From assembly GCA_965215195.1 (NCBI GenBank), contig CBDCDC010000002.1, forward strand, positions 640,001 through 704,000: a DNA stretch of 64,000 nucleotides. Direction: 5' to 3'. The translations under genes were made by a program, and so were the position numbers. Source of the stretch: Candidatus Latescibacterota bacterium (GTDB lineage Bacteria; Latescibacterota; UBA2968; UBA8231). The notes below the pieces were generated by a model. The model saw only the letters and a program-made list of their open reading frames with translations, was not told the DNA's origin and ran no database searches. Below are positions 1 through 28,969 of the stretch, one piece after another (position 1 is the stretch's first letter; the number at the start of each line of letters is the position of its first letter).

Positions 1-603
1 CGCCCCAAGCGAGCGGAAGGTGCGCTGCTCGAGCAACGTCTCCTTAAATGCGAGCACCACGCCGAGGCCAAGGCCGGCGTTGACCAAGCCGGCGACCAAG
101 GCCGTATGCAGGCTGCCGAGGAAGGGCAGCAGGATGTACGGGAAGAGCAACGAGGCCAACAAGGCCCCCAGATAGTCAAGGGACAAAACATTAGATAGGG
201 CTGCGCGCAGCGTACCGTGCCCGCGCAAAAGCCGGGTGATCAGCGGCACTTCCAAGCCGATCAACGCGCCAATCGCCGTGCTCAAAGCCAACATGCCGGT
301 CCTAAAGTGGTCGGTGTAGCCGTAGAGCACGTAGAGCACGCCAACCGAAACCCCACCCAAAAGCCCCAGCCAAATCTCTAGCTGGGCTAGCCGCGTCAAC
401 AGCAGGTGGTCGGCGACAAAGCGCGAAAGCCAAGAGCCAAGCCCCATCGCAGCGAGGAAAAAGCCGATCGTCAGGGAAAACTGCTCGACGCTATTGCCGA
501 GGAAGTAAGACGACACGCTGCCGATGAGGAGCTGATAGACGATGGCGCAAACGGCGGCCGAGAAAATGGCCACCAGCAAAAACAGCACCCCCAGCCTAGG
601 CAT
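1..603 (-). CDS. speE: Membrane-bound polyamine aminopropyltransferase (spermidine synthase-like), N-terminal membrane region; runs off the window
   Basis: Hand translation from ATG at 603: MPRLGVLFLLVAIFSAAVCAIVYQLLIGSVSSYFLGNSVEQFSLTIGFFLAAMGLGSW...IGLEVPLITR...SNVLSLDYLGAL, the typical N-terminal TM region of this family. Start overlaps the upstream stop (596-598). Catalytic domain lies outside the window. Confidence 0.8.
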   Translation of the reverse strand, partial: MPRLGVLFLLVAIFSAAVCAIVYQLLIGSVSSYFLGNSVEQFSLTIGFFLAAMGLGSWLSRFVADHLLLTRLAQLEIWLGLLGGVSVGVLYVLYGYTDHFRTGMLALSTAIGALIGLEVPLITRLLRGHGTLRAALSNVLSLDYLGALLASLLFPYILLPFLGSLHTALVAGLVNAGLGLGVVLAFKETLLEQRTFRSLGA

Positions 604-2257
604 CCCCAAGCCCTCCCAGCGAGGAGGCATGCGCCACGCCGAGGCAGTCCATGGCCTGCTCCGCCGCGAGGATGCCGGAAAATATCGCTTCTTCGCACAG
701 GGGCAGCCCGGTCGCATCGCACGAAGCAAAAAATATCCGCTCCATGGGCTGCTGCCGCCAAGCGGCCATTGGCCCCCACAGCGACCGAGGGCTGGGCCGC
801 ATCATCCCGTGCCCCCAGCGATACAGATCAACGCGCTCTACGAGGTCGTCCAACTCCGGGTGAACTCGGCGCAGATCGGCCATGATCTGTTCGGTCCAAA
901 ATGAATGACCCTGCGAAAGCAAGGTGCGCCGGGCGTCTGCGAGTTGATCGACAAAGGGCCAATAGTACATCAGCACGCGGCCTCCTCCGCCCTGCTGGTG
1001 GTCGGCGACCACGTAGCCCAGCGATGGGCTGTCGTACAAGACATTGTCCCAAGTCGTTTGCTGGGCGGCGAGCGGCTCTTTGAGGAAAATCGCCGCCACC
1101 AACCACGGGCTGTACTCGATGGCTGCCATAGCCTCGGCCTGGGCATCCGGCAGACCCGCAATCGCATAGGGGGCCGTGTGGAGCTTGCCGGCGTACACCA
1201 CGGCCCGGGCGGTCAGTTGCCGTTTTTCCCCGGTCGCCAAGTCGATGTACCCCAACCGCACCTGCGACCGCTCCTCAGCTAGACGAGCCACTAGAGCTTG
1301 TCGCTTTATCTCGTTTTCCCCCAACCTATTAGCGAGTTCCGCAACTAGGTGCCCATTGCCCTCGGGCCACGTCAGGGTGTGGGCTGGATACGCCTCCTCG
1401 ATCCGGTAGTCGTAGAACCTACAGGCATAGTAGTGAATCCCGGCCCAAGCCGAGACTTGGGCTGCCGTGCTGCCGTAGTCGTCGCGGCAGGCGTAATCGA
1501 CCAGCCAGCCGAGCCGGTCGTCGTGCCATCCTTCTTCGCGGAGGTACTGGGCCATGCTGATCTGGTCCAAACGCCGCACCCTTACATCGGCCGTGCTGTA
1601 GCGCAAGGGCATGGCAAAGGCCCGGCGACCGTCTCGACCGCGGTGCAAGGCCCAGCCCAGCATTTCGTCTTCAAAGCGCAACAAGGCTTCGCGCGCCCGG
1701 CCCGATGCGCCGACAAACGGGTCTAGCCCAGCGACCCAGCGACCCCGATAGAAGAGCCGCTCGTGCGGCCAGCGCAGCAGGGCCCCAGCCGCGACCATTG
1801 GCCTATTGGCCGCGTCGTACCCGTCGATGACGCCGATATCTTGCAGTATTTCGTGGATGCAGTCGGCTTCGGCCGGAGGGATGTTGATGTAGTGAGCGCC
1901 CCAGGGAAATACCCGGTCGCCCCAGCGGCCACTGCGACTGGTGCCCCCTAGCTGGTCTTCGAGGTCGAGGAGGCGGAGCCGCTTGACCCCGGACCGACGC
2001 AACTTCCACGCGGCCGCCAAGCCGGAAATTCCACCGCCGACAATGGCGACATCGCACGCCCGCTCAGCCGCGGCAAAATCGGCCCAAGAATGCACGTCGC
2101 GCAGCAGGTGCCCACGCGGCGGTCCCTCGTTGACGATCCGCCCGGGGATTGGCCGCCGCCGGTCAGACGCGCAACCGCTCCAAGCGGCCCAGCCCCCGGC
2201 CGCGGCGAGCGCACCGAAAAATTGCCGGCGGCTAAGGGCCTTCATCCCATGGGCCAC
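596..2257 (-). CDS. FAD/NAD(P)-dependent oxidoreductase (flavin amine oxidase-like) with Tat-type/lipoprotein signal
   Basis: SRRQFFG twin-arginine motif followed by WSGC; GGGISG FAD motif; GGTSRSG and WGAHY; C-terminal RWGHGM. Confidence 0.85.
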   Translation of the reverse strand: MAHGMKALSRRQFFGALAAAGGWAAWSGCASDRRRPIPGRIVNEGPPRGHLLRDVHSWADFAAAERACDVAIVGGGISGLAAAWKLRRSGVKRLRLLDLEDQLGGTSRSGRWGDRVFPWGAHYINIPPAEADCIHEILQDIGVIDGYDAANRPMVAAGALLRWPHERLFYRGRWVAGLDPFVGASGRAREALLRFEDEMLGWALHRGRDGRRAFAMPLRYSTADVRVRRLDQISMAQYLREEGWHDDRLGWLVDYACRDDYGSTAAQVSAWAGIHYYACRFYDYRIEEAYPAHTLTWPEGNGHLVAELANRLGENEIKRQALVARLAEERSQVRLGYIDLATGEKRQLTARAVVYAGKLHTAPYAIAGLPDAQAEAMAAIEYSPWLVAAIFLKEPLAAQQTTWDNVLYDSPSLGYVVADHQQGGGGRVLMYYWPFVDQLADARRTLLSQGHSFWTEQIMADLRRVHPELDDLVERVDLYRWGHGMMRPSPRSLWGPMAAWRQQPMERIFFASCDATGLPLCEEAIFSGILAAEQAMDCLGVAHASSLGGLGDA

Positions 2258-2269
2258 GGGCGGCAGCCC

Positions 2270-2980
2270 TTATTTTGCCATCTTCATTCTGGCCTTGAGC
2301 TGGGCCAGCGAATCATCGACCTTGACCCCCTTGCTGTCGGCGAGGGCCTTGTCGATCTCGTCGTCAACGCTCGTCGCCGCATCGCCCATATCGCCATAGG
2401 CCTCGGCGAGGGCTTCCTGCTCTTCGGCCTTTTCCTTCATCCGTTCGAGCAAGGCCGTAGTGCCCTTGGAGTCGATGTTGGCCAAGTGCTGGTTGATTTT
2501 GCGGGTGGCGTTGGCGGTTTTGGTGCGCGCCTTGAGAGTTACCAGATCGTTTTCGTACGAGGCGATTTTCGACTTTAGATCGTTGACATTGCTCTGTAGC
2601 TTGTTGGCCATGGCCTGTTGGGCTTGGGCCTGTTGGGAGGCTTCTGCATACCGACTCTGGGCCTCCTCAACGCGGGTCAGGGATTCGCGCGCCAAGCGGT
2701 CGGCTTCGGCTTCCTCCATCTGGCCGGACTCGGCCTTTTGCAACAGCAGCATGGCCTTGCGCTCGTAGTCTTGGGCGAGCCGGCGGTGATCTTCGGACTC
2801 GCGGCTGAGCCTGATGGAGATCGCCTTGACCTCGGCGAGGGCCTTGAGACTTTCCTGCAAGTCCTTTTTTAAGTCGCGGATCGCTTGCTCGCTCATCTTG
2901 ATCGGGTCTTCGAGCTTATCCACTAAGGAATGGGCCTCGGCCTGCCCAGTCTTAAACAAGCGTTGAAATATACCTGCCAT
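2270..2980 (-). CDS. pspA: PspA/IM30 family protein
   Basis: N-terminal amphipathic helix GIFQRL, LEDPIKM motif, long coiled coil, LERMKEK and C-terminal LAQLKARM. Confidence 0.9.
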   Translation of the reverse strand: MAGIFQRLFKTGQAEAHSLVDKLEDPIKMSEQAIRDLKKDLQESLKALAEVKAISIRLSRESEDHRRLAQDYERKAMLLLQKAESGQMEEAEADRLARESLTRVEEAQSRYAEASQQAQAQQAMANKLQSNVNDLKSKIASYENDLVTLKARTKTANATRKINQHLANIDSKGTTALLERMKEKAEEQEALAEAYGDMGDAATSVDDEIDKALADSKGVKVDDSLAQLKARMKMAK

Positions 2981-2991
2981 ATCCTATCCTC

Positions 2992-3384
2992 CTATTGGGC
3001 GGCAAAACCCAGTAATTCTTCCCCGTGCTCGACTAAGCCGAGACTAAGGGAGTTGATGGTGCTTTCCAGTTCGTTTAAGTCCAAATTCTCCAGCGCCAGC
3101 GTATTGCGGTAGAGCAGGGAATCGCCTTCCTCGTTGAGGACGAAGGCGCCAAAGACCAAGTCGCGGTTCATCTGCAAGATGCGCTTATATGGCTCGGCGG
3201 CCTTAGCAGCGACCTTGAGGATGAGCTGCTCAATCACCAGCACCGTATCCTCGCAATCGACGACCAAGTTTTGCACCCCCCGCTCCTCGTCGTTGACAAT
3301 GATGATTTCCTCTTCGGGAATTTCCTCGGCGATGGCAAAGCCCAGCTCGAGGACGTACTCCTTTACGGTGGCAAAATCTGCCAT
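2992..3384 (-). CDS. YbjN/CesT-Tir-like chaperone protein
   Basis: Acidic 130 aa with LQMNRDLVFGAFVL and LENLDLNELE motifs; adjacent to pspA as in known Psp variants. Confidence 0.75.
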   Translation of the reverse strand: MADFATVKEYVLELGFAIAEEIPEEEIIIVNDEERGVQNLVVDCEDTVLVIEQLILKVAAKAAEPYKRILQMNRDLVFGAFVLNEEGDSLLYRNTLALENLDLNELESTINSLSLGLVEHGEELLGFAAQ

Positions 3385-3404: not shown

Positions 3405-3728
3405 TTAATGGGTCGTCAGGGACTTTTCTAGCTCTTTATAAGCATGCGTCAACTGGGCACACAGGGCGTTGGCCACCTCGCGCTTGGCCGGATCCTGGGC
3501 GTGGCGGTCGGGGTGGTACTGCTTCATCAACCGCTTCCACGCCGCCTTCACCGCTTCCAGATTCGCTCCATAGGGCAGCTCCAGATTGGCGTAGTACCCA
3601 GCGAGGACCGGGTCTTCGGCCGGGGCGGGGGCCGGCTCTGGGGGCCGCCAGTGCCCGTAGGCATCGCGTGGCTCAGCGGCCGTAGTGTGCGCTCGCACGA
3701 CGCGAAATATGCGCGTAAACAAGTCCAT
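3405..3728 (-). CDS. Small J-domain (DnaJ-like) protein
   Basis: YYANLELPYGA...VKAAWKRLMKQYHPDR with intact HPD; N-terminal amphipathic MDLFTRIFRVVRA. Confidence 0.85.
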   Translation of the reverse strand: MDLFTRIFRVVRAHTTAAEPRDAYGHWRPPEPAPAPAEDPVLAGYYANLELPYGANLEAVKAAWKRLMKQYHPDRHAQDPAKREVANALCAQLTHAYKELEKSLTTH

Positions 3729-3770
3729 AAATGGCGAAGATACAAGGGCTAATGGCCCTTGTCCAACCCC

Positions 3771-6700
3771 TCAATAGGCGAGAGAAGAGACGGCCTTTTT
3801 GATAATCGACAAGGCCGCGCTGAACATGCCGATCAGGGCCATACCAACCCCAAAGCCCACGCTCAAGACCATGGCGTATTGCCGCCATTGCTGCTTGCCG
3901 TACCGCTTCCAAAAGTAGTGCCGGGCGATCAGGGCACCGATTATCTGCGGAATGAGAAAATGCGGAATGCCGTTGACGCTTTGGACGTATCCCCAGATCA
4001 TAAAGATCGGCATTCCCAAAAAGGCCATAGCAAAATATGCCGCCAAGCCGAAGCTAGCTGCGCCGATGATGATGGGCCACTTCCTACCGCCGAGGGGATG
4101 GTGCGTATCCTCGTCGATCAGGCCGTCGCCATCGTCGTCGCGGTTGTTGACCAGCTCTTCGTCGATGCCCTCAATGGCCCCGGCTCGATAGGTCAGGCCT
4201 AGCGGGAGAGACGACGCATCGGCCACCAAACCTTGAAGCCGGTCTCCATCCCGCTCCCATTCGACCAGCACCGCTGTCGCGGTCTCCTCCACGACCGCAG
4301 CAAAGGCGGCCCTTACCTCCTCGCTACGCCACGTATCCTGGTCAATGCTTTGGCCGTTGATCGTCATAAGGTAGTCGCCGGCTTGCAAGCCGAAGCGGTG
4401 GCCTAGCCCCTCCTCAGCTACGGTGGCGACGCGCACCGCGTCGTATTCGGTCCAACTCTCGACGAATGACGTGTCCGCCGCAAACTCAAGTCCCAGTGCT
4501 TCCCCCGGCCGGCGCACCACAGCGCGACGCATGGTTTTCTCATCCCGTTCCCAAACGGCAAACACCGAGTCCGCTCCCTGGGTAAAATACCGCTCAATCC
4601 GCTCAGTATCCCATTGCGGGACGCGGAGTTCGACGCCGTTTATCGCACGGAGGCGGTCGCCGTCGGCCAGTCCAAGCTGGCCTCCTAACCCCTCCGGCTC
4701 CACACCCTCGACGAGAGCCGCGATATTGAGGTCGCCGTCGTCGTCCTTGCGGTTGCCGGTAAAGCGCATGTCCTGCCAATAAACCGCAAACATCAAGGGC
4801 ATGTCCGAGGATCGTTGCAAAGCCTCGCCGTCAAAGCTGGGCAGGCGATCCACTTCAAAGTAGAAATCAACCGAATCGCCCGGAGCCAAATTGATCGCAG
4901 CCCGGAAGTTGGGGTTCGGCGTGGCAATCGCCATGCCGTTGGGGGGCCAAAGTAGCTGGGGGCCATCCGACGGAGTATCCGCCTCGGCGTCGATCCTTTG
5001 GGCGGCCTCCGGAGGCGGTGGTGCGTCCCCGCCGCTGAAGTCCGTGTAGAAGTAGCCTGTCTGCGACCAAGGGCCATTAATGCGCTTTACCGGGTCCGGC
5101 ACCTCTAAGTCCCTAGTGGTACTCACCCGCCAGTACCACCAACGGCCATTCTCCAAATTGGGAGGGCTCCACACGACTTGGCCATTGGGCACAATATCCC
5201 CTTCCAACTCCTCTCCGGCGCGCCACATTTTGGGGTACATCGTGCTAGTATAGGCGAGCGCCCGGTCAAAGGCCGCCAGCGGCCAATAGATTTGCGCGTA
5301 TGGGTAGCTCTCCGAGGGAATAGGACCCAAGCGCCAGAGGAAGGTCCAGTACATCAGACTGACCCCTAAGACGATGGGCAACATAAAGAGCTCGGCTTTG
5401 AGCAGACTGGTAAACTTCATCCCGGTCAGTTCGACGATCCTAAACCCCTCGGCATGCCCGCCAAAGTTGCGGGTCGGAAAGGGCACGAACCAGATTTCGA
5501 CCCCGCGAAAGCCGGTCATTAAGCGGATGGCGTCTTCGACATGGGGGATCGAAATGTTTCGGCCAACCAAGCCGTCGAGCCGGGCACTGACAAAGGACAT
5601 GATCGGCGCATAGACAAAGGCGATGAGCACGAAAAGCACCAACAGGCCGGTGCTGACCAAGGTGGGAAACAAGCTCTTGGCCAACACGATTGGATAAATC
5701 GCCGCTACGCAAAACAGCGAAGCGCAAACCCACATATTGAAATCGCCGCGGCCGAGGTGTTTTAAGCAGTACCCCCTCACTTCGGCCGGGCGGAGGCAGT
5801 CCGAGTGCTTGCACATCCCCGACTGATCGCCCCCTTGGAGCTGGAGCTTCTCCCGCACTTCGGCCTGCTTTTCTCGGCCAGTAGAAAAAAGCTGGTGAAA
5901 GCTGACGATGGTGACCGCGATGGTAATGCCAATGGAAAAGGCGCGCCAAAAGTCGATTCCAGTGACGATGGTAGTTTGGATGGTGTGCATGCCGAGTTCC
6001 CAGCGCGGCAGATAGCCCCATGCGTAGAGAAAGGGACTGATGGCCGTGTGTAGCATCACCCCGGCAAAGGAGCCGATCACCCCCCAGAAGGGCACGAACA
6101 ACCCGGCGAATACTGCCCCCAAACTCGTGGAGACCCCCAGCGGCGCAGCCTGTATGATATTGCCGAAATAGGGACTCAACTCCCAGAAGGGAATCGGCAA
6201 GATCGTCACTTTGGAACCCCAGATCTCGGTGATGACCGGGACCCCTACATAGATGACCCCGAATGACGCACCGATAACCGCGCCAATGCTGAACACCGGC
6301 CACTTCCACGTCTCTCGCTCGGCACCCGAATCCTCGGCCAGTGCCATAGCGCTCAACGCCGACATGGGTGCGGTGGGAAAGGGCAATTGCTCGCGGTCGG
6401 AAACGAGCCGGAAGAGCATGTAGCCGGTCGTAAACCAAGCGATGCGGCCCATGATCGTCCCGACCACCAACAGCAGGATCGGAGTCAACCAGTCGCGGTG
6501 AATAAAGGTGCGCTCGGCAATGGCCTCCGAATCGGGCGCGGGTACCCACCAGTCCGGCAAGCGGTGCGCTATCCCGAATAGCTCGGCTTCGGCCGAGGTC
6601 ACAAAGTACTGACGCCAGAGCAAGTCGAGGAACGCGCCCTCTCCGCCGGCGATCAAGGCAGTGGCGACGTACACTAACAGGTAAATCTCTTGGCGCTTGA

Positions 6701-6998
6701 GCGCGGCAAATGATCGCTTGGAGACCTCTAAAAAGAGGATCACCGTCACCCATTGCGCCGCCACGCCTATATCGATACCCGCGTACAGCCCGAGGAACAT
6801 CTCGCCCGGGGTCATAATCAGCGAGATGAAGAGCACACCGATAATGGTACGGCTCGTAAAGCCCTCCTCAAAGCGGTCGGGCGCTTGGAGCAAGTCGCGG
6901 TATTCATCGACCTCACCCCATTGGCGCTCCTTTTTTCGTTTGCGATCAAATAGCTGCTGAAAAGACGCAGACAGTCTTTGAAAAAACGCTTCCATCAT
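3771..6998 (-). CDS. OPT/YSL-like polytopic peptide transporter with inserted FN3-like, tandem PDZ and DxDxDG domains
   Basis: FEEGFTSRTIIGVLF, EQLPFPTAP and many TM segments; ~390-aa soluble insert with two GLxxGDxLxxING PDZ signatures and two DDDGD motifs; ATGA overlap with the upstream gene. Confidence 0.7.
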   Translation of the reverse strand: MMEAFFQRLSASFQQLFDRKRKKERQWGEVDEYRDLLQAPDRFEEGFTSRTIIGVLFISLIMTPGEMFLGLYAGIDIGVAAQWVTVILFLEVSKRSFAALKRQEIYLLVYVATALIAGGEGAFLDLLWRQYFVTSAEAELFGIAHRLPDWWVPAPDSEAIAERTFIHRDWLTPILLLVVGTIMGRIAWFTTGYMLFRLVSDREQLPFPTAPMSALSAMALAEDSGAERETWKWPVFSIGAVIGASFGVIYVGVPVITEIWGSKVTILPIPFWELSPYFGNIIQAAPLGVSTSLGAVFAGLFVPFWGVIGSFAGVMLHTAISPFLYAWGYLPRWELGMHTIQTTIVTGIDFWRAFSIGITIAVTIVSFHQLFSTGREKQAEVREKLQLQGGDQSGMCKHSDCLRPAEVRGYCLKHLGRGDFNMWVCASLFCVAAIYPIVLAKSLFPTLVSTGLLVLFVLIAFVYAPIMSFVSARLDGLVGRNISIPHVEDAIRLMTGFRGVEIWFVPFPTRNFGGHAEGFRIVELTGMKFTSLLKAELFMLPIVLGVSLMYWTFLWRLGPIPSESYPYAQIYWPLAAFDRALAYTSTMYPKMWRAGEELEGDIVPNGQVVWSPPNLENGRWWYWRVSTTRDLEVPDPVKRINGPWSQTGYFYTDFSGGDAPPPPEAAQRIDAEADTPSDGPQLLWPPNGMAIATPNPNFRAAINLAPGDSVDFYFEVDRLPSFDGEALQRSSDMPLMFAVYWQDMRFTGNRKDDDGDLNIAALVEGVEPEGLGGQLGLADGDRLRAINGVELRVPQWDTERIERYFTQGADSVFAVWERDEKTMRRAVVRRPGEALGLEFAADTSFVESWTEYDAVRVATVAEEGLGHRFGLQAGDYLMTINGQSIDQDTWRSEEVRAAFAAVVEETATAVLVEWERDGDRLQGLVADASSLPLGLTYRAGAIEGIDEELVNNRDDDGDGLIDEDTHHPLGGRKWPIIIGAASFGLAAYFAMAFLGMPIFMIWGYVQSVNGIPHFLIPQIIGALIARHYFWKRYGKQQWRQYAMVLSVGFGVGMALIGMFSAALSIIKKAVSSLAY

Positions 6999-9900
6999 TC
7001 TGCTTGCTCAGCTTGGGTTGCGGTGGCCAACATCTGCTCGGCGACCCCACGGTGGTGGGCTTTGGATTCCTCCGCCAGCGTGTGCCAGAGCAGGAACTCT
7101 TTCCGCAACCCATTGATAAAGCGGTGGTTGACCCGCTGCCAGAAGGTGTCCTGCCCGCTGATCCGCTGAATGTAAATCTCCACGGTATAGACGGATTTGA
7201 CTTCGGTGGGCAAAAATTCGAGCTGCATGAACTGACTTACCCCCATGTCGAACGGCGCCAGCCACAGCAGGAGCTGCACCGCGTACTCCGGCCCGCGCTC
7301 GCCGTCTTCGGCGACCAACTGGACCTTCTCGGCGTAGAAGTCGCCGATGGACTCTTCGCTATAGGCACCGAAATACCCGGCCAAAAAGCCGCATAGGCCG
7401 CGCACTTCCCCCTCGCCGACCATAAAGGGAAACTCCATTTCCCAGCGGTCTCCATCAGGGTCCGGCGGCGTCCAGCGGCGGATGGTGTCGGGCACGGCCG
7501 TGCGGGCCGCTACCCTCGCCGGATAGATAGTCGACAGCAAGACCACGGCCATCACGAGCAGGGCCGAGGAAATCGCCGCCATCGACGAGTAATTGAGGCT
7601 TATGCCCCGTAGCAAATCCAACGCGAGGAGTGCTTTGCCCAAACTCTGGCCGAGAATATAGCCCAAGGTAACGCCAATGATCGCATAGACACAGGCTTCG
7701 GCCACGAAAAGCAGGGCAATGTGCAGCGGTGCCAATCCCACCGACGAATAAATGCCGATTTCGCGGAAGCGCTCATAAACAGCCCCCATCATCGCATTGA
7801 GCACAATCAGCGCGGCGATGAACATCGGTATCACCAAGTCCCCCAATCCCTCGACGTCGGGAGACCCAATCGAGGTGTAAGAAAACACCTTAACGGCCGA
7901 TTCGCCCGGCTCCTGCAGGCCGACAAAGAGCGTAATGGCCAGCCGCAGGAGAAAATCCTCGACCATTTCCTGTGTGTGTGCGCCATCCTCCATCCGCACC
8001 GCCACTGAGCGCAACATGCCCCCGGCCTCGCGCAGCGTTCCGTAGGGCAAGACCAGCACATTGTCGGATTCTAGGTGAATGAACGGGCGAATATCGAGGG
8101 CGGATTCATCTACGGCGATGCTCATCTTGTCCTCGGCCACCGGCCCCAGCGCTTGGGCACTCGACATCTGGAAGTCTGCCGGCGTCAGGGACTCGTCGTC
8201 GAGGTCGCGGGTCGCTTCAAAGAGGTCGGGATCGAATACGCCCCGCACCACCAAATCCCGACCAAACACCCGAACCGTCGCCGTGCCCAGTTCCGCCAGA
8301 CCAATGCCCAGTGCCTCGGCCATGCCCGCGGCCATCAGGCAGGTCGCCTCGTCCTCGCGGGTGAAGAAGCTGCCGGCCACCAGCGCTTGGTCAATGCCGG
8401 TGACGCGCACTTCCTCTGGCATCAGCCCCAGCATCCCGGTCGCCCGCACCATGGAGGTATCGCCGCTGACTTCGATGTACTTTTTCTGCTCGTCGTCAAA
8501 GGCCACATACCAGTTGCGCGGCACGACCACCCCTTCGGTGGCAAAGTGGGAGCGGGCGTAGTCGAGCGTCGGGCGGTTTAGCACATTCCAATTGCGGTCG
8601 CGGATCAGCACCCCTTCGTAGGTGCCCTCGTGGTCCATCGCAAAGGCCATGTAGCGGATCTGGGTGTTGAACGAGGTGAAGGAGAGCACCGTAAAGGTGA
8701 GCAGGACCAAGGTCAGCAAGGTCAGCCCGGTGCGCAGCTTGCGTCGGCGCATATTGGAAATGCCGAGCATAAAGGCCGCGTAGCTGGCGCTGGCGCGGTT
8801 GATATCGGTCTCGTGGACGTGAGCTTCCCTCGCCTGATACGCCTTCATATAGCTGTTGAAGCGGGAGCTAATCATGGCCATGACAAAGGCCGCCATGGCC
8901 ATGATGGCAAAGGCCAGCAAGATCACTAGCGGATGGGCGATGGCAAAGGCCGGATGCACCTGAGAGATGGCGATCCAGATCAAAAGCAACAACCCCCCAA
9001 ACCCGGCGAGCTGCCAGCGAATATCCGCGGCCGCAAACAGCAACCGCTCCCCTAAGAAGGCCGTCGGGATGACCAAGGCGAGAAAGAATACCATGCCGCT
9101 GATGACGTCGTTGAGCGTCTGGAGCACTTCCGGGTACGCGCGCGACGTCACCCCCAGCGCGGCCCGCACGTACCCGACATAGCGCTCCCAATCCCTGGCC
9201 TCTTCGGCCTGTCGCGCCTCTTCGATTAGCCCCTTGCCGCGCTGATGCAACCGGGCCAAGCGCTGGTTTTCAATGGCGTGCTCGCGCAAGGTGCGCAGCC
9301 GCGCCTCGTTGAGCTGCCACATGTCTTCAACAGCCAGCATTCCGGTGCGGACCAGCGATTCCTCTCTCAGCACGTAGCCCCGTCCTCGCGCTTGCTTCTC
9401 GTCTTCGTATCCCTCGCTGTTGAGCAAGAGCAGGCGGTTGTCGACAAGCATTTTGATGCCGTCGTCCTCGTCGGCGTCCTGCGGCCCAAAGACCACCCCG
9501 ACGGCCTCGCCTTCGTCAAATCCCCGCGCCAGTCCAAACTGCTGAGGTGCCACCCCGCTGCGGTCGACGATCTTGATCCCCTTGAACGACCGGAGATAGC
9601 GCGGGTCAATCATGCTGTAGAAGGGCCGCGAGATACTGCGGAAGACGACGATGATCTTTTCGTTGGTATTCCAGCGAATTTTGCTGTCGATCATCCACCC
9701 GTTCACGACCCCGCCGCTGAACTTTTGCGCCCGTTCCGAAAGGTCGGGCGCGAACGCGATTTCCCCGGTCGCCGGATCGACTTGGTAGGCCGCTACGGGA
9801 TAGGCCCCGGTGCGCAAGCCGGCGATGTCGGCCACGCCTTGGCCATCGGTGAGGTGGTACTGGGCCCCGCGAAGTCCCTTGTGCGACTTGAACCAAGGAT

Positions 9901-11398
9901 TAACTACTACAATGGCGTTGGCGATCGGACGGTCCGGCACTTGGCTTTTGCGTGGAAACGAGCGCACCTTGACCCGCAAAGAGCGCAATTTGTCTTTGAG
10001 TACTGGACCAAAGTCTTCGAGGTCGGCAAACAGGGCTTCGTCGTTTACGGCCCGCGCCAGCATGGCGTTGAGCAGGCTGCTCTGGCGGGACAGATTGTCG
10101 ATATTCATCCGCTCGGGTGTATCAAACGGGGTATCGACGATATAGCGGGCGTCGTTGACGGTCACAAACGACAGCGAGATGATCCCAGCAGTCAGCGCCT
10201 GCTCCCCACTGACCGAGACTCCACCCGGTACGAAGGTGGACCAGTCCATGCCGCGAATTGGGCTGATCCCATTGGCCAGCGGCCGCTCCTGCTCCAAGCC
10301 CAACCGAGCGGCCTCCTCCGCGGCATAGGCCGTAAAACGCCGCCCAAAGGGCACGAAGAACCGCTTGAGGTCGTAGCTAAAGGTATTGTTCCAGATCCCC
10401 AGCCCAGCCGACTGACTCGTCAAATCAATGCAGATGAAGAGCTTGGGCTTGAGCGGCTCTTCCATCCGCTCGGCGTAGTAGGGATGGAGGCGGGCGTGGC
10501 GCTCGAGGAAGTGGACAATCCCCTGCTGAGCTTGGAAATGCGCACCCGTGGCCACCAGCACGACCGGCCGCCGCGGGGGATGGCGCACCAGATGCTCGGC
10601 CAGTGCCAGCAGCGCAGCGATGCCGCTGGTCGCTTCGGCCGCCGGCGCCAAGGCCGGCACCACGGACATGCCGTCGTAGTAGCTTTCGATGACAATGGTC
10701 TCGTCGGCCAGCGCCGGATCCGTGCCGGGGAGCCGGCCCCAGATATTCCAAGCCGTCTCGCGCTGCCAGTCCATCCGCCCCTTGAGCACGACTGGAGTTG
10801 GATGCTGGAGCAATCGCTCTTTGAGTTGCAATCCGGCCGCTCGTTCAATCCAAAAGCGCGGGATGTCCAGCGGTGCGGTGGAGTACTTGGCCGCCGCTTG
10901 ATTGCGCGTAGTCTCCTCCGGCTCGATAAAGACGATGGCGCGTGCGCCCAGCGAGGCGGCCTGCAACCAGCGGCTCCAGCTATTGAACTCCATCAGCACC
11001 ACCCGGCCGTCGAGTTCGCGGCCGGCGTAATCGGTCCACTCGCCGTCCCCGCCGTAGATCATCTCTCCCTTGTATTCGGGCAGGGTCGGGGTGCGGACCA
11101 AGTTGGGCCACAGGCCGTAGAGGGCGTAGCGCTCTCCGCTCTCTGGGAGGAGCAACTCGCCGCCTTGGTCGATGGGCACGGTGACTTCAAAGGATTCGCG
11201 GGTCAGCTCGGGCAAGCCGATCTCGCGCAGGCGTTGCTCCACGTAATCTGCGGCCGCAGCCGCCCCGGGATAGCCGCTCACCCTAGAGCCGAGCGACGAC
11301 AGATAAGCGACGGTTTCGCGCACCCCGTCCTCGCGCGCCCAACCGCCGTCTGCGGCTAGCGCGAGAGCGCATAAGATGTAGTACGCCGAGTGCTTCAT
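6995..11398 (-). CDS. Large fusion: signal peptide + PA/M28 peptidase-like domain + FtsX/MacB-like permease
   Basis: Start ATG 11398 overlaps upstream TGA (ATGA); GSRVSGYPGAAAAADYV, PA-like GARAIVFIE, M28-like VIESYYD; FtsX motifs NMRRRKLRTGLTLL and VYERFREIGIYSSVG. Confidence 0.8.
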   Translation of the reverse strand: MKHSAYYILCALALAADGGWAREDGVRETVAYLSSLGSRVSGYPGAAAAADYVEQRLREIGLPELTRESFEVTVPIDQGGELLLPESGERYALYGLWPNLVRTPTLPEYKGEMIYGGDGEWTDYAGRELDGRVVLMEFNSWSRWLQAASLGARAIVFIEPEETTRNQAAAKYSTAPLDIPRFWIERAAGLQLKERLLQHPTPVVLKGRMDWQRETAWNIWGRLPGTDPALADETIVIESYYDGMSVVPALAPAAEATSGIAALLALAEHLVRHPPRRPVVLVATGAHFQAQQGIVHFLERHARLHPYYAERMEEPLKPKLFICIDLTSQSAGLGIWNNTFSYDLKRFFVPFGRRFTAYAAEEAARLGLEQERPLANGISPIRGMDWSTFVPGGVSVSGEQALTAGIISLSFVTVNDARYIVDTPFDTPERMNIDNLSRQSSLLNAMLARAVNDEALFADLEDFGPVLKDKLRSLRVKVRSFPRKSQVPDRPIANAIVVVNPWFKSHKGLRGAQYHLTDGQGVADIAGLRTGAYPVAAYQVDPATGEIAFAPDLSERAQKFSGGVVNGWMIDSKIRWNTNEKIIVVFRSISRPFYSMIDPRYLRSFKGIKIVDRSGVAPQQFGLARGFDEGEAVGVVFGPQDADEDDGIKMLVDNRLLLLNSEGYEDEKQARGRGYVLREESLVRTGMLAVEDMWQLNEARLRTLREHAIENQRLARLHQRGKGLIEEARQAEEARDWERYVGYVRAALGVTSRAYPEVLQTLNDVISGMVFFLALVIPTAFLGERLLFAAADIRWQLAGFGGLLLLIWIAISQVHPAFAIAHPLVILLAFAIMAMAAFVMAMISSRFNSYMKAYQAREAHVHETDINRASASYAAFMLGISNMRRRKLRTGLTLLTLVLLTFTVLSFTSFNTQIRYMAFAMDHEGTYEGVLIRDRNWNVLNRPTLDYARSHFATEGVVVPRNWYVAFDDEQKKYIEVSGDTSMVRATGMLGLMPEEVRVTGIDQALVAGSFFTREDEATCLMAAGMAEALGIGLAELGTATVRVFGRDLVVRGVFDPDLFEATRDLDDESLTPADFQMSSAQALGPVAEDKMSIAVDESALDIRPFIHLESDNVLVLPYGTLREAGGMLRSVAVRMEDGAHTQEMVEDFLLRLAITLFVGLQEPGESAVKVFSYTSIGSPDVEGLGDLVIPMFIAALIVLNAMMGAVYERFREIGIYSSVGLAPLHIALLFVAEACVYAIIGVTLGYILGQSLGKALLALDLLRGISLNYSSMAAISSALLVMAVVLLSTIYPARVAARTAVPDTIRRWTPPDPDGDRWEMEFPFMVGEGEVRGLCGFLAGYFGAYSEESIGDFYAEKVQLVAEDGERGPEYAVQLLLWLAPFDMGVSQFMQLEFLPTEVKSVYTVEIYIQRISGQDTFWQRVNHRFINGLRKEFLLWHTLAEESKAHHRGVAEQMLATATQAEQAE

Positions 11399-13557
11399 AC
11401 CCAAAAAATGGAGTTCCCCACTTTTCCCGTGAAGTAATCTACGACCAGCCACAGTCCATTACACGAAACCTGCCCGCAGATCAGCCCGAGAAAGAACATC
11501 TGACTGCGGCGGTACAAGGCCACCCCGCCAAAGCGCATGATCATCTTCTTGATACACCAAGCCAAGAACACGCTAAACCACACGTGGTTGAGCATGCCGT
11601 TGGCGCCAATGGGAAAGCCGATGGGATGCACCGGCCACCAAGGCAGGCGCTGCCGCGCCCCCATCATCGCCACCATCACCAGCCCACCGCCGGCCAAAAA
11701 CCCCAGCCCCGGCCAGTACGCGCCCGCCGGCTCCATATTGCGGAGCGCGTTGTTGTACGCGGTTTCGGGCGCGCCTTTGAAAAACCAACCGTTGAGGTTT
11801 ACGCCGCCGTGCTGGTAGGCCATGTGAAAAATCATCCAAAACGAACCGAGGGCCCCGATGAACAGCGCGAGAATAATAGCCCAAAACACCAGCCGCCGCA
11901 GCCGCGGCTCCATCTCCTCGATCAGCTTGAGGGCATTGGTGCAGGTCGCCATGACGAACACCCGTATATCCGCGCCCCACATGTAGGCCAACGACAAGTT
12001 CCACACCCCAGTCCGGCTCACCAGATCGGTCCCCAAGCCCAAAATTACCAAATCGGGGGCCGTCATCGGGGCGCGCACGGCCGCTAGGCCGGCTTCGGCC
12101 ACGATCCGCGTTATCCCCAGAAAGACGAGCAAGGCCAAGACGACAAAAACAAACGCCACCCACAGCGGCGTCCCCATGATCCACAGCCACCACGACATGA
12201 CCAAGACCCCGCCCACAGCACCGAAAAATGACCAGCGATAGGACATGATCTCATCCCCATCCTCCACCTCTGGGGCCCAGCCGAGGGCCTTTTTACACAC
12301 ATTGCACAAGTGTTCCCTCCCCACCCACAAACCAACCCCGACCATGGCCAGCAAGGCACCAACCCCTTGATAGGCCATCAGGGAAACGTCGGCTACGCCG
12401 AAGACGACCTTCTGCTCGGACGTCACGCCGGCGAGCGCGAAGAGCTCCTTTTCAAACTTGGCTAAGATGTGAAAAAACCAGATACCGGCGGCGATATTGG
12501 CATTGATGAAGTACGAAAAGCCGATCATGGCGAAGCTGACGACCAAGCTCAAGCTCTGCTTTTCTACTAAGGGTAAGGGCATCGCCCAAGAGAGGGAGAA
12601 AATCGGAAAGGCCGCGTCGTAGCGATGCAGGGCTTGCAGACTGCCGAAAAAGAGCGGCAGACTAAAACCGGCCCACATGGCTGGCTGGCGAAAAAAGGTA
12701 TTGATTGTAAGCCCGCGTTCCTCTCCGCGCACCATGGCCAACCCTACCTGCGTGAGCGGATAGGGCAATCGCTCGCGCTCCATCCACTGCCGGCGGACGA
12801 TGACCGCGACCGACACCATAGTCACGTATAGTGCTAAAAGAAAGACCGCCCACCAGCACAAAGGCTCGACCCACGCCGCGTAGGGAATCGCCTCCCCGGG
12901 GGCCAGCCCTTCGTAAAAGGCCTTGCTGTCGCGCCCATCGTCGACCAGTACCGGGCGCGCGGAAAAATGGGGAAAGAGCACTTCCCGCCACTTGTTTTCC
13001 GGCGAGGCAAAGTAAAACACCGCCGTGATCATCGGCAGAATTTGCTCGCTCAGGCCCATGGTGCAAAGCGCTGAGACGATCAACAGCATGACGTAAACGA
13101 GAATCAGCTCGGCCCGGTTGAGGACCAAACTCCGCCCGGAAAAAACCAATACCATGTTGAGCAGGGACGAGGCGAGGAGGAAGGTGGCAAAGAAAAAACC
13201 TAGGGCAAACGGGTTGAGGGGCGCCGCCCAGCCATAGTAGAAGCCGTAGAGTGCGCACGATACTGCGGCCCAAACTACCGCACCCAGCGGGCTAGCAGCG
13301 ACCTTGAACAGCACATTGAGCAGCCCGATGAGCACTAAAAACAAAAAAATGGCCCCCGGCGTACTGAAGTCCAAGGCCATGTAGGAGCCGCGTATGATCA
13401 TGTTGCCGTACGGAGCGCCGACCGCTAGGAAAAAGCTGAGGAATGACCCCACCCAAAATGCACGCATGGTTAGCCGCTGGGTCCCGGGCGGTGCCAGAAG
13501 GGCTTGGCCGCGCCCGGCGAGGTGGTTCAGGTAGTGGATCGGCAAGCGTCTTAGCAA
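11395..13557 (-). CDS. DUF6785/DUF6784-type polytopic membrane protein
   Basis: RRQWMERERLPYPL and WWPVHPIGF motifs, many TM helices. Start uncertain: TTG 13557 after AGGGAG, or ATG 13467; the ORF-track start 13815 overlaps the divergent gene. Confidence 0.7.
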   Translation of the reverse strand: MLRRLPIHYLNHLAGRGQALLAPPGTQRLTMRAFWVGSFLSFFLAVGAPYGNMIIRGSYMALDFSTPGAIFLFLVLIGLLNVLFKVAASPLGAVVWAAVSCALYGFYYGWAAPLNPFALGFFFATFLLASSLLNMVLVFSGRSLVLNRAELILVYVMLLIVSALCTMGLSEQILPMITAVFYFASPENKWREVLFPHFSARPVLVDDGRDSKAFYEGLAPGEAIPYAAWVEPLCWWAVFLLALYVTMVSVAVIVRRQWMERERLPYPLTQVGLAMVRGEERGLTINTFFRQPAMWAGFSLPLFFGSLQALHRYDAAFPIFSLSWAMPLPLVEKQSLSLVVSFAMIGFSYFINANIAAGIWFFHILAKFEKELFALAGVTSEQKVVFGVADVSLMAYQGVGALLAMVGVGLWVGREHLCNVCKKALGWAPEVEDGDEIMSYRWSFFGAVGGVLVMSWWLWIMGTPLWVAFVFVVLALLVFLGITRIVAEAGLAAVRAPMTAPDLVILGLGTDLVSRTGVWNLSLAYMWGADIRVFVMATCTNALKLIEEMEPRLRRLVFWAIILALFIGALGSFWMIFHMAYQHGGVNLNGWFFKGAPETAYNNALRNMEPAGAYWPGLGFLAGGGLVMVAMMGARQRLPWWPVHPIGFPIGANGMLNHVWFSVFLAWCIKKMIMRFGGVALYRRSQMFFLGLICGQVSCNGLWLVVDYFTGKVGNSIFWV

Positions 13558-13596
13558 GTGGAGCTCCCTGCTGTATCGCAATGGCGTATTGTGGTG

Positions 13597-13606
13597 TATT
13601 ATAATA
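13597..13606. promoter_or_regulatory. Palindromic TATTATAATA giving TATAAT on both strands between divergent genes
   Basis: Perfect 10-bp palindrome in the short intergenic region; no convincing -35 at canonical spacing. Confidence 0.35.
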
Positions 13607-13672
13607 AGCCGCCTAACCGATTGGGACAACGCGAGTTGACGGCATCGGTATTTGGGAGTTTTTTCCCTAGAT

Positions 13673-14800
13673 ATGGAACTCGACTTCCTCCAGCTCGCCA
13701 AGCCCCTCATCCGCGCCCCCACAGCCCCTTTCCACGAGCATTTTGCCTTTGGCATCGCGCACGCATTCGCAGCCGAGCGGCCTCTAATCCAAGTGCTCGG
13801 CGACCGCGGTGGCAACAGCTTGCTGCTCTACGACGGCCGAGGCCAACAGGAGGAGGACGAATTTCTCGTCTTGACTGCCCATCTCGACCACCCCGGCTTA
13901 GTGTGGAGAACATCGCTGGGGCCAGGCCGAGCGCTGTTCGAAATCCTCGGCGGCGTCGAACTGGAGCAGGCTCTAGCGACGGGCGTGCGCCTATTCGACC
14001 TGAATCGCCCGGCTACCCAGCGCGGCAGCCCCGGGACCATCGTCCGCACGGTGGAAGAGGAAGGAGCGCACTATCCCCTAGTTGAAGTGGTCGCAGCACC
14101 CGATAGCCTCCAAGGCCCGGGGACCTTTGCGATGTGGGATTTGCCGGCCTTTAGGGTGCGGGGGCGGCGCTTGAGCGGGCGGGCGATCGACGATTTGGCC
14201 GGCGCGGCCGTGGCTTTGTGCGTCTTGGATTCCCTAGTCCGCCAGCGAGCCTCGGCCCGCGTCGGCGTCTTGCTCACGCGTGCGGAAGAGGTGGGTTTCG
14301 TGGGTATGCTCGCCGCGCTAGAGGCCAAGTTCTTGCCGCGCCGCGCACTCTACATCAACATCGAGTGCTCTAGCGTGGCGGCTGGAGCGGTGCTGGGCGC
14401 GGGGCCGATCTTGCGGGTGGGCGATCGGCTCTGGGTTTTCGACCCGGACATCAGCAGCGGATTGGCGGCACTGGCCGACGAATTGACCGCCCAACAGCCC
14501 TCTTTCCACTACCAACGCAAGCTGATGGACAGCGGTGCTTGCGAAGCCACTCCCCTCATGCAGGCCGATTACCGCACGGGCGCGGTGGCGCTGCCCCTTG
14601 GCAACTATCACAACTCGGGGCCGGGTGCGCAATTGGCCCCAGAATACATCAGCCTCGACGATGCCTGCGGGCTGGTGCGCCTCCTCGTCCACGTGGCCGA
14701 GCGTGGCCTTGGCACCGGGCTGGCGCATTCGGCCGCTGCGCTCGACTCGATGCTCGCCGACCGACTGGCGCAATACCGCGACCGCCTACTCCCCCTGTAG
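13673..14800 (+). CDS. M20/M42/M28 family metallopeptidase
   Basis: Metal ligand motifs TAHLDH, RAIDDLAG, RAEEVG, NIEC and NYHN; no signal peptide; ATG 13673. Confidence 0.85.
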   Translation: MELDFLQLAKPLIRAPTAPFHEHFAFGIAHAFAAERPLIQVLGDRGGNSLLLYDGRGQQEEDEFLVLTAHLDHPGLVWRTSLGPGRALFEILGGVELEQALATGVRLFDLNRPATQRGSPGTIVRTVEEEGAHYPLVEVVAAPDSLQGPGTFAMWDLPAFRVRGRRLSGRAIDDLAGAAVALCVLDSLVRQRASARVGVLLTRAEEVGFVGMLAALEAKFLPRRALYINIECSSVAAGAVLGAGPILRVGDRLWVFDPDISSGLAALADELTAQQPSFHYQRKLMDSGACEATPLMQADYRTGAVALPLGNYHNSGPGAQLAPEYISLDDACGLVRLLVHVAERGLGTGLAHSAAALDSMLADRLAQYRDRLLPL

Positions 14801-19785: not shown

Positions 19786-20391
19786 CTAGGACGTTCTCTG
19801 CGATCGCGGCACCTCACTCGCGGGAAATTCGACTTTTGCATAGATCGCACGCAAGGATAGTTGGCAACCAATGGAAACGAGATCAAACTCGTCGTCGAAT
19901 GCGCTAAATTCGGTCAGGAGCCACTGGGGCCCTTGCCGAAAATAGCGTTCGACGCATAGCCTGTTTTGGGCAACGAGCAGGTATTCTCGCAGCGACTCAA
20001 GTTGCCGATAGTGGGCAAATTTCTCCCCCCGATCATAGGCTTCGGTCGAGGGCGAGAGAACTTCTATCAGAACGGTCGGATTGAGGAGAGTATCGAGGTC
20101 GCTGTCCTCAAAGCGGGGTTCCGCACAGACAACGACCACATCCGGGTAGGTGTATAGCCCCGCTGGATCGACCTTTACGCGCATGTCGTTGCTATAGATC
20201 TCGCAAGGCCGCTCTCGCAACTGGACGTGAAGCTCACTCGCCATATTAACGGCGATGAGATTGTGCTCTCGACTGGCACCGACCACTGCATAGACGCGAC
20301 CGTTTAGGTATTCGCTTTTGGTCGTGGCCTTGCGTTCCAAAACGAGGTATTCCTCTGGAGTCAGGTAGGATGGTGCAGCAATGGATTCCAC
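19786..20391 (-). CDS. Uma2 family endonuclease
   Basis: TPEEYL, EYLNG, YPDVVV, EVLSPSTEAYDRGEKF, EYLLVAQ. Confidence 0.92.
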   Translation of the reverse strand: MESIAAPSYLTPEEYLVLERKATTKSEYLNGRVYAVVGASREHNLIAVNMASELHVQLRERPCEIYSNDMRVKVDPAGLYTYPDVVVVCAEPRFEDSDLDTLLNPTVLIEVLSPSTEAYDRGEKFAHYRQLESLREYLLVAQNRLCVERYFRQGPQWLLTEFSAFDDEFDLVSIGCQLSLRAIYAKVEFPASEVPRSQRTS

Positions 20392-28084: not shown

Positions 28085-28969
28085 ACCAATGGTGCTAGTG
28101 AGTTGACCGTGGTCGAGGTAGTTCCTACGCTGAGGGTGTCCCCCCTTCCAGCGAAGGAGCGTCCCATGACCACGGCCGAGTTTATAATAGCCCTCTTCTA
28201 TCGGATCGACAACCAGATGGGCGATGTGCCCAAACACCCCCAAGCCGCCTTATATCCCAGCGAAACGGTGACCCTGGCGGTTCTATATGCGCTCAAAGGG
28301 GACGGCAAACGGGCGTTTTATCGCTGGGTAGTGCGCGATTGGCGCGCCTTTTTCCCGCGCCTGCCCGAACGCACCCGCTTGTTCCGCCTGTTTGTCGCCC
28401 ATGCGGACTGGACCGATCGCTTTCGAGCGGACCCCACCCCCTTAGGCGTGATCGATAGCTATGGCATCGAGTTGATCCATCCAGTACGCGAAGGCCGCTC
28501 CGCTCACCCTATCGGCCAGAAAGGGTTGTCCAATCACCGCTGGATCGTCGGCGGCAAGCTGGGCTTGATCGTCAACCAGTGGGGCTTGATCGTCGATTGG
28601 GATTGTAACACGGCCAATGTCCACGATTCGGTCTTTCACCCGATGATTGGTCGCTACGAAGAGCAGATGATCCTCCTCAGCGACCAAGGCTTTCATGCCA
28701 AAGAAGGTGATCCGGCTAATCTGAAAGTGTGTCCCCGCAAAACCTGGGGCGACCGGATGGTCATCGAGACCGTCTTTTCGATGCTGACCCGCATTGGCCG
28801 GTTCAAGCGACAGACCCATCGAGCTTGGGCCTACTTTAGAGCGCATCTGAGCGCGGCCATGGCCGCCTTTAACCTGCTGGCACAGTGGCATGGATTGCAA
28901 CCGGATGAAAATGGATTCGTCCCGTTGTCCATCGCGGAATTTAGCTTGTAGCCCACTAGCACCATTGGT
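28085..28969 (+). mobile_element. IS982-like insertion sequence, 885 bp
   Basis: Perfect 16-bp TIR ACCAATGGTGCTAGTG (28085-28100 and 28954-28969); 5-bp target duplication TAGTA (28080-28084 and 28970-28974). Confidence 0.9.
28166..28951 (+). CDS. DDE transposase (IS982-like)
   Basis: FPRLPERTRLFR, VIDSYGI, ANVHD, SDQGF, RMVIETVFS; AAGGAG RBS before ATG 28166. Confidence 0.88.
   Translation: MTTAEFIIALFYRIDNQMGDVPKHPQAALYPSETVTLAVLYALKGDGKRAFYRWVVRDWRAFFPRLPERTRLFRLFVAHADWTDRFRADPTPLGVIDSYGIELIHPVREGRSAHPIGQKGLSNHRWIVGGKLGLIVNQWGLIVDWDCNTANVHDSVFHPMIGRYEEQMILLSDQGFHAKEGDPANLKVCPRKTWGDRMVIETVFSMLTRIGRFKRQTHRAWAYFRAHLSAAMAAFNLLAQWHGLQPDENGFVPLSIAEFSL

Follow-up and report, generated by a model that had tools for sequence, protein, structure and literature searches.

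Two OPT-related permeases and a giant M28-like/MacB-type protein in a predicted conserved cassette of Latescibacterota, with a possible role in peptide uptake

In this study, we analyzed a stretch of 64,000 nucleotides from a Candidatus Latescibacterota bacterium (assembly GCA_965215195.1, contig CBDCDC010000002.1, positions 640,001 to 704,000), which is referred to as a whole as the window. The closest relatives in the genome collection are metagenome-assembled genomes named Latescibacterota, a few of them labelled Gemmatimonadota. The minus strand of the window carries three very large membrane protein genes in a row, here termed g1, g2 and g3, and an initial annotation had proposed that they encode parts of one membrane system. 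Our comparative analysis supports this proposal, and we see roughly even odds (a probability of about 0.5) that the cassette encodes a multi-subunit uptake device for a peptide-like oligomer. The genes and their parts, with residue numbers in amino acids (aa) and transmembrane segments abbreviated as TM, are:

11395..13464, minus strand: g1, polytopic membrane protein with DUF6785 and DUF6784 and an OPT/Yellow-Stripe fold (Pfam, AlphaFold2 model, Foldseek)
11395..11398, minus strand: ATGA stop/start overlap of g1 and g2 (read from the sequence: ...GTATGAAG at 11398-11395)
6995..11398, minus strand: g2, giant subunit of 1467 aa (Pfam, PDB sequence match, model comparisons)
9989..11323, minus strand: g2 residues ~26-470, PA/M28 aminopeptidase-like ectodomain with degenerate metal and catalytic site (2ek8 match, motif alignment)
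7487..8797, minus strand: g2 residues ~868-1304, MacB/LolC/FtsX-type module consisting of TM1, periplasmic core domain and TM2-4 (Foldseek, VIA, Pfam FtsX)
7076..7456, minus strand: g2 residues ~1315-1441, cytoplasmic alpha/beta domain other than an ABC ATPase (weak structural matches)
6995..6998, minus strand: ATGA stop/start overlap of g2 and g3 (read from the sequence: ...GAATGATG at 6998-6995)
3771..6998, minus strand: g3, divergent OPT-family permease with a large insertion before the last helices (hhalign, Pfam OPT matches of relatives)
4299..4751, minus strand: g3 residues ~750-900, two PDZ domains (PDZ_6, 48 bits vs. a cut-off of 27)

The open reading frame of g1 spans 11395-13815; the ATG at 13464 is its probable start and gives a protein of 689 aa, while an upstream start is possible as far as 13581. 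The frame of g2 (6995-11452) starts with the ATG at 11398, and that of g3 (3771-6998) encodes 1075 aa. Both ATGA overlaps described in the initial annotation are real in the sequence.

The protein g1 matches two Pfam families above their curated cut-offs, DUF6785 (E 2.8e-103, 346.6 bits, cut-off 25) and DUF6784 (E 3.5e-28, 98.2 bits, cut-off 26.4). Its AlphaFold2 model, built on an alignment of 22 paralogues, reached a predicted local distance difference test (pLDDT) value of 87 and a predicted TM-score (pTM) of 0.90. The best Foldseek match of this model was barley Yellow Stripe 1 (YS1, 7wsr_A; E 6.7e-7, probability 1.00, TM-score 0.56/0.63), and the only strong matches in the PDB were the two structures of this transporter (7wsr_A and 7wst_A), all others having E values of at least 0.025. 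By its predicted fold, g1 is a member of the OPT superfamily.

For g3 itself, Pfam reached no transporter family and recognized only PDZ_6, in two stretches (E 1e-12). A plain BLASTP comparison of g1 and g3 was not significant (E 0.19), although the motifs ERLPYP of g1 and EQLPFP of g3, which the initial annotation had pointed out as shared, were aligned. They were also aligned when the two families were compared as profiles: hhalign related the g1 family (44 sequences) to the g3 family (11 sequences) with a probability of 96% and an E value of 4e-9 over 453 columns. A g3-type paralogue of 660 aa had 907 relatives at E <= 0.001 among 1.84 billion representatives, 295 of them at E <= 1e-30. Five of 14 scanned representatives of the g3 family matched Pfam OPT, and four of the five scored higher than its cut-off (25.8 bits); in these relatives the model was covered over almost its full length. 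The motif E-[RKQ]-L-P-[FY]-P was found in 74 of 78 full-length representatives of the family. Because of the g1 fold, the profile homology, the OPT matches of relatives and the common motif, g1 and g3 are best regarded as two different members of the OPT superfamily, in agreement with the OPT relationship that had been suggested for both. On sequence grounds, g3 appears to be closer to canonical Pfam OPT than g1, and a distant homolog of the latter. Among the 14 scanned relatives, PDZ was present in one and Reg_prop repeats in two (one above the cut-off). As a side observation, residues ~391-415 of g3 (window positions 5750-5830) form a Cys/His-rich stretch (C-x4-C ... C-x2-H) in a loop between two membrane blocks, which may be a small metal-binding element.

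The giant protein g2 begins with a signal peptide and a PA/M28-like head; these are followed, in this order, by a beta-sandwich and helical region, three TM, a MacB-type module with four TM and a C-terminal alpha/beta domain. Its seven hydrophobic segments are arranged as 3 + 4 (at residues 758, 793, 815, 888, 1181, 1214 and 1268). Pfam detected FtsX in g2 (E 3.1e-11), and g2 paralogues reached Peptidase_M28, PA and MacB_PCD. Among PDB sequences, the N-terminal part of g2 matched the aminopeptidase 2ek8 (E 7.5e-5). The head was assigned to the PA/M28 type because of this match and of the Peptidase_M28 and PA matches of the paralogues. An M28 metallopeptidase carries a catalytic Glu-Glu and five metal ligands, and a motif alignment against the positions that we take to be canonical for the family did not find this set in any of the six g2 paralogues of this genome. 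In all six, His-Phe or His-His stands in place of the catalytic Glu-Glu, and a Glu in place of the bridging Asp; H-x-D reads Y/H-Y-D, the first His being a Tyr in three of the six, including the g2 of the window. With the M28 catalytic residues gone, the head looks like a dead peptidase, as the initial annotation had supposed. Nicastrin and the transferrin receptor are examples of proteins in which an inactive M28-like ectodomain acts as a receptor.

A model of g2 residues 480-1467 (35 sequences, pLDDT 79) resembled MacB (5gko_A, Foldseek E 3.1e-10), LolC/E, YtrF, HrtB and FtsX, with VIA Z scores of 13-15, and matched the MacB periplasmic domain 3ftj with a Z score of 13.3 and a root-mean-square deviation of 3.2 over 177 residues. 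It shows the arrangement of a 4-TM FtsX module with its periplasmic core domain between TM1 and TM2. At the TM2-TM3 junction the stretch YERFREIGIYSSVGLAP (YERFREIG...GLAP) is invariant or nearly so in the 35 sequences. The last ~130 residues gave weak matches (Z 8.0-8.8) to the Aha1 C-terminal domain and to START-like and KA1 domains, and neither a Pfam match nor a usable Atlas match. An Atlas look-up returned several clusters of FtsX + M28 proteins of 1,599-1,863 aa with no taxa recorded, and archaeal FtsX clusters as lower-scoring leads.

The genome that contains the window has 47 matches to DUF6785, 44 of them full length, together with six full-length g2 paralogues and five g3-type genes. 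For five of the six g2 genes, a DUF6785 gene as well as a g3-type gene is located only a few genes away, and the gene order takes three different forms; the neighbors of the sixth are a DUF6785 gene and an ammonium transporter gene. The triplet of the window is, judged by these neighborhoods, one of six paralogous cassettes. At the level of the phylum, members of the g2 family were detected in 155 of 168 Latescibacterota genomes, which represent 13 of 14 families. At nine loci from other genomes, a g1-like and a g3-like neighbor were each found six times; at 20 further loci, some of them on short contigs, a g1-like neighbor was present at 15, a g3-like one at 12 and at least one of the two at 19. 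Moreover, three of four long frames tested, from three genera, encode M28/MacB_PCD/FtsX followed by DUF6785 and DUF6784 in one open frame of 2,094-2,661 codons (L044:7699-13980, L045:7402-14241 and L046:6181-14163). By frame length, open frames of 2,090-2,148 aa in 23 more relatives resemble such fusions; none of the six g2 genes of the window's genome is a fused copy. A frame of 2220 aa at locus L047 was considered as a fusion of DUF6785 and g2 and rejected as a chance open stretch, since Pfam shows FtsX alone. The co-occurrence of g2 with g1-like and/or g3-like genes and the single frames of g2 and DUF6785 bear out the proposal that the triplet belongs together, and the three proteins would be parts of one conserved, phylum-wide system.

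Several further loci deserve mention. A g2 homolog of a distant genome, in the C1 region of locus L010 (genome G010), is interrupted by a single in-frame TAG, beyond which the match continues in a separate frame; a broken copy and an assembly error are the two explanations for this. In the cassette at L041 (G000:C2:1899001-1919000), HicB-like and PIN-domain genes of toxin-antitoxin type lie between and beside DUF6785 and g2, with an ExbB/ExbD/ExbD set and an FGE-sulfatase-like gene nearby. About 40 DUF6785 genes of the genome are without g2 (e.g., L053-L062; G000:C1:183001-196000, C2:276001-290000, C2:512001-527000 and C2:3058001-3078000). They often cluster with secreted proteins with tails of the type IX secretion system (T9SS) type (CHU_C/FlgD_ig), F5/8-type-C domains and FG-GAP/ASPIC proteins, and in the same clusters occur a secreted family of ~870 aa without Pfam match, PMT_2-TPR proteins and multi-TM spermine-synthase-domain proteins of ~840 aa. 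From gene content, these clusters look like a second kind of DUF6785 locus.

A motor for the MacB-type module is suggested by other families of the phylum. In three deep-branching families with one g2 per genome, the gene order is g2, g3, a 294-aa protein (X294), a PqqD-like protein, FtsX228 (an FtsX protein of 228 aa that lacks a periplasmic domain) and an ABC ATPase, the latter being encoded in cis at L048, L049 and L050. In another family (L070, L075 and L080) a related ATPase lies upstream of the cassette, where it adjoins g1 in L070 and L080 and is ~5.5 kb away from g2 in L075. The genome of the window has a single orthologous FtsX228-ATPase pair (57% and 74% identity; C2:1364227-1365705), located after RmlD and GT2 genes, and a single X330/PqqD pair in another cassette. 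Its ATPase is LolD/MacB-like. The FtsX228 ortholog is present in exactly one copy in each of 148 of the phylum's 168 genomes. All 13 genomes of family f10, the one family also without g2, lack it; five of five f10 genomes tested (93-97% complete) had no DUF6785 and only ordinary FtsX permeases of 410-510 aa. According to the part of the source drawn on here (PMC5985334), MacB contacts its ATPase through the major coupling helix, which is situated between TM2 and TM3. With the TM2-TM3 junction of g2 invariant or nearly so, g2 probably still docks an ATPase, which would be supplied in trans. An orphan LolD-like ATPase (C2:3379883-3380635) may be a second candidate for the motor.

The genes on either side of the triplet, of which the last continues beyond the window, are:

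13673..14800, plus strand: M42-family aminopeptidase without signal peptide, divergent (Pfam Peptidase_M42)
3405..3728, minus strand: small DnaJ-domain protein (Pfam DnaJ, E 7.2e-9), 42 bp downstream of g3
2992..3384, minus strand: CesT/Tir-type chaperone-like protein (Pfam CesT_Tir_1, E 2.9e-45)
2270..2980, minus strand: PspA/IM30 family protein (Pfam PspA_IM30, E 1e-43)
596..2257, minus strand: flavin adenine dinucleotide (FAD) amine oxidase-like protein (Pfam Amino_oxidase, E 5.4e-16)
1..588, minus strand: 5' part of a 501-aa spermine/spermidine-synthase-domain gene that runs off the window (based on locus L083)

The M42 protein (E 2.5e-15, 56.7 bits, cut-off 23.2) aligns with TET1 (2cf4) at the motifs AHLDH, IDD and AEEVG (H, D, EE); an Asn is aligned to the fourth ligand position, and the alignment ends before the last His. 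The initial annotation was right about a divergent peptidase gene without signal peptide, and its gap of ~115 bp has to be corrected: the genes are 208 bp apart when g1 starts at 13464, or ~70-90 bp if g1 starts upstream, up to 13581. The gene is divergently upstream in 21 of 25 close relatives with available flank and lies beside the cassette in five of seven loci of other genera (L047, L063, L065, L066 and L079, not L064 and L067). Downstream of g3, the gaps are only 42, 20, 11, 12, 7 and 12 bp (preceding the DnaJ, CesT_Tir_1, PspA, amine oxidase, spermine synthase and DUF4178 genes, respectively). Locus L083 shows Spermine_synth (E 5e-35) and DUF4178 (E 8.2e-15), and beyond the window the spermine synthase gene is followed by DUF4178 and then by a 231-aa gene. 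Operons of CesT/Tir and PspA with a TM-spermine synthase and DUF4178 were described as a class, to go by the portion of that paper used here (Ravi et al., 2024; PMC11237479), and the same combination was found downstream of g3. Here it follows an OPT/FtsX cassette and includes the DnaJ-domain protein and the FAD amine oxidase, unlike the described class; the portion used names no OPT/FtsX cassette partner, and FtsX is mentioned there once, in connection with HAAS fusions. The adjacency of cassette and PspA is kept in 22 close relatives and at L063, L064, L065 and L079 (three other genera), and not at L047, L066 and L067. Scans for promoters and terminators yielded no more than weak consensus matches, among them a promoter-like match upstream of g1 (13629-13601) and a weak sigma-70-like match (3765-3737, 9/12) in the 42-bp gap between g3 and the DnaJ gene (3729-3770); a separate promoter for the PspA module is possible. 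The region from g1 to the amine oxidase gene is covered by metatranscriptome contigs of four studies, with all 30 bins covered in run X3. These contigs are mostly 90-95% alike to the window and therefore derive from relatives, and no contig of the four studies bridges the g3/DnaJ gap, where contigs end or diverge. Carry-over of DNA is possible, and these data hint at most at expression of the cassette.

In the arrangement that we propose for peptide uptake, the secreted head of g2, which has lost the catalytic Glu-Glu, would be seated on the MacB/LolC-type membrane module. Head and MacB-type periplasmic core domain would capture a peptide-like oligomer in the periplasm and hand it to the OPT-fold permeases g1 and g3, which would carry it inward across the membrane as members of the same physical complex. 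In the sections drawn on here (PMC9691689), YS1 is a dimer that has core and scaffold domains and for which an elevator mechanism was proposed, and OPT/YSL (Yellow-Stripe-like) proteins are described as importers; the latter counts for import, as does the linkage of the M42 gene to this group of orthologs. By analogy with the YS1 homodimer, g1 and g3 may form a heterodimer. g2 would probably be driven in trans by the single-copy FtsX228 and LolD/MacB-like ATPase, which deep-branching relatives encode in the cassette, and the cytoplasmic M42 aminopeptidase could trim imported peptides. In this copy, the PDZ pair of g3, M42 and the CesT-PspA-polyamine module, presumably for membrane maintenance, would be additions of the lineage. 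A more far-reaching version is a hybrid primary/secondary transporter, in which one ATP-driven FtsX228/ATPase motor docks on interchangeable g2-type subunits and loads or gates a heterodimer of elevator-type OPT-fold permeases by mechanotransmission. This version is possible, with odds clearly short of even. If it holds, a single motor would be shared by many cassettes, each specific for its substrate: six in this genome, and one, with the motor in cis, in small genomes. A complex prediction for g1 with g2 residues 1185-1467 scored 0.27 against a mark of 0.32 and counts neither way.

Several observations weigh against peptide uptake by such a complex. Neither g1 nor g3 matches Pfam OPT (PF03169) at E <= 0.01. 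No gene for an ABC ATPase was found in the window, nor next to any of the six cassettes; a partner in trans is suggested by synteny at other loci and by a single co-absence at the family level. The co-absence in f10 is statistically weak because it is a single shared absence among related genomes. In characterized type VII ABC systems, no substrate is moved inward through the membrane in which the system itself resides, as far as the part of the source drawn on covers them (PMC5985334). The PqqD-like peptide-binding protein of the ancestral cassette could equally well fit peptide maturation or export. The ~40 other DUF6785 genes adjoin proteins with T9SS tails, FG-GAP/ASPIC proteins and PMT_2-TPR glycosyltransferase-like proteins, not peptidases. 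The parts peculiar to this locus do not hold up as core components. The initial annotation had counted the M42 peptidase as part of the system; it does accompany the cassette in several genera of one family, but is missing in four of 25 close relatives and, like PspA, at the five other cassettes of the genome. The PDZ pair ascribed to g3 is present, but is by its distribution a genus-level insertion: it was found in the loci of 23 close relatives and not in L004, and it is absent in seven of seven orthologous cassettes of other genera (L047, L063-L067 and L079; three also PDZ-negative in Pfam). Topology reasoning on the membrane side of this insertion gave conflicting answers. Thus, with the PDZ pair specific to the genus and the M42 and PspA links restricted to the family, none of them would be core, and the M42 gene is best seen as a lineage-level accessory.

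The direction of transport is where the proposed uptake has its most serious competitor. As an export or extraction machine, the MacB-type g2 would do periplasmic work like MacAB, LolCDE and YbbAP while the OPT-fold proteins deliver a molecule outward; possible cargoes are a lipid-linked or surface-glycan intermediate and a modified peptide that the PqqD-like protein would recognize. Among relatives of the g2 module with solved structures, all act outward or in the periplasm, in the part of the source considered (PMC5985334). The PqqD-like protein and X294 of the ancestral cassette fit such a role, as do the T9SS cargo and PMT_2-TPR proteins next to DUF6785 paralogues and the RmlD and GT2 glycosyltransferase genes ahead of the FtsX228-ATPase pair. 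However, barley YS1, the characterized OPT/YSL member, is an importer according to the sections drawn on (PMC9691689), the cassettes contain no visible precursor or modifying enzyme of a ribosomally synthesized and post-translationally modified peptide, and a cytoplasmic M42 aminopeptidase is linked to this group of orthologs. We regard export as rather unlikely.

The downstream genes raise the idea of an envelope-stress sensor or quality control system, in which misfolded or mislocalized envelope proteins are bound at their exposed termini, through the PDZ domains and the dead peptidase head, and a signal is passed on to the PspA module. The PDZ pair, the tight spacing of the DnaJ-domain, CesT and PspA genes behind g3 (42, 20 and 11 bp) and the PspA adjacency at four cassettes of three other genera of the family (L063, L064, L065 and L079) agree with it. 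Yet this idea is built only on lineage-specific parts: the PDZ pair is absent from all seven orthologs of other genera and from L004, and PspA occurs neither at the five other cassettes nor at L047, L066 and L067. In addition, the CesT-PspA-spermine synthase-DUF4178 set was described as a module on its own, in the portion of the paper used (PMC11237479), and the g3/DnaJ gap holds the promoter-like match. Signaling of this kind seems improbable to us. Similarly little credence is given to an absence of any complex, i.e., to independent, co-regulated transporters with g2 as an orphan MacB-type permease in a separate role. That g1, g2 and g3 assemble physically is what we infer, orphan families of FtsX-type permeases exist, and g2 weakly matches one of them, the ADOP family (TIGR03434, E 3e-4). 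However, a single polypeptide of g2 and DUF6785 at three verified loci in three genera is hard to square with independence, as is a neighborhood that persists across 13 families despite changes in gene order.

The proposed uptake device shares traits with three well-known protein classes and departs from each. With the OPT/YSL family (PF03169; HvYS1, 7wsr) it has in common the model fold of g1, the Pfam OPT matches of g3 relatives and the E-x-L-P-[FY]-P motif, and the YS1 dimer, as presented in the sections drawn on (PMC9691689), fits the g1/g3 pair. In contrast to that family, sequence identity is only ~11%, g1 is filed under DUF6785/DUF6784 and g3 in no Pfam family, g3 has large insertions (PDZ here, Reg_prop in relatives), and two different family members are encoded together and tied or fused to a MacB-type protein. 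Type VII ABC systems (MacB, LolCDE, FtsEX, YbbAP, HrtBA, YtrEF and BceAB) resemble g2 in the 4-TM topology, in the Porter/Sabre-type periplasmic core domain between TM1 and TM2, in the invariant TM2-TM3 junction, and in the small FtsX and LolD-like ATPase in cis in deep relatives. Unlike these systems, g2 has no fused or adjacent ATPase, ~870 extra N-terminal residues (PA/M28-like head, beta-sandwich and three TM), a non-ATPase C-terminal domain, and as partners permeases with a secondary-transporter fold instead of adaptors, lipoprotein carriers or hydrolases. As for the PA-domain M28 aminopeptidases (Aneurinibacillus, 2ek8), the similarity of g2 extends over the PA domain and on through half of the catalytic domain, the first one, whereas its head is membrane-tethered and has the Glu-Glu, the bridging Asp and, in three of six paralogues, the first His replaced.

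A full-text literature search found no paper on DUF6785/DUF6784. Judged on titles and abstracts, nothing was found on a Latescibacter/FtsX/M28 or an FtsX/OPT/MacB/orphan-permease system, in line with the earlier statement that a system of such composition had not been described. If our proposal is true, OPT secondary carriers and MacB-type ABC modules, two classes thought to work alone, would be combined in one machine, with a new coupling of substrate capture, and possibly of ATP, to a secondary carrier. It would provide the first functional context for two Pfam DUFs with ~45 occurrences in this genome, would help to explain the acquisition of oligomeric nutrients by an uncultured phylum, and would offer a testable case of a single motor common to several cassettes. 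Elsewhere in the window, a DDE-transposase-like open reading frame (28166-28951) and a Uma2-family endonuclease-like gene (19786-20391) were seen, and the rest of the window is otherwise housekeeping.

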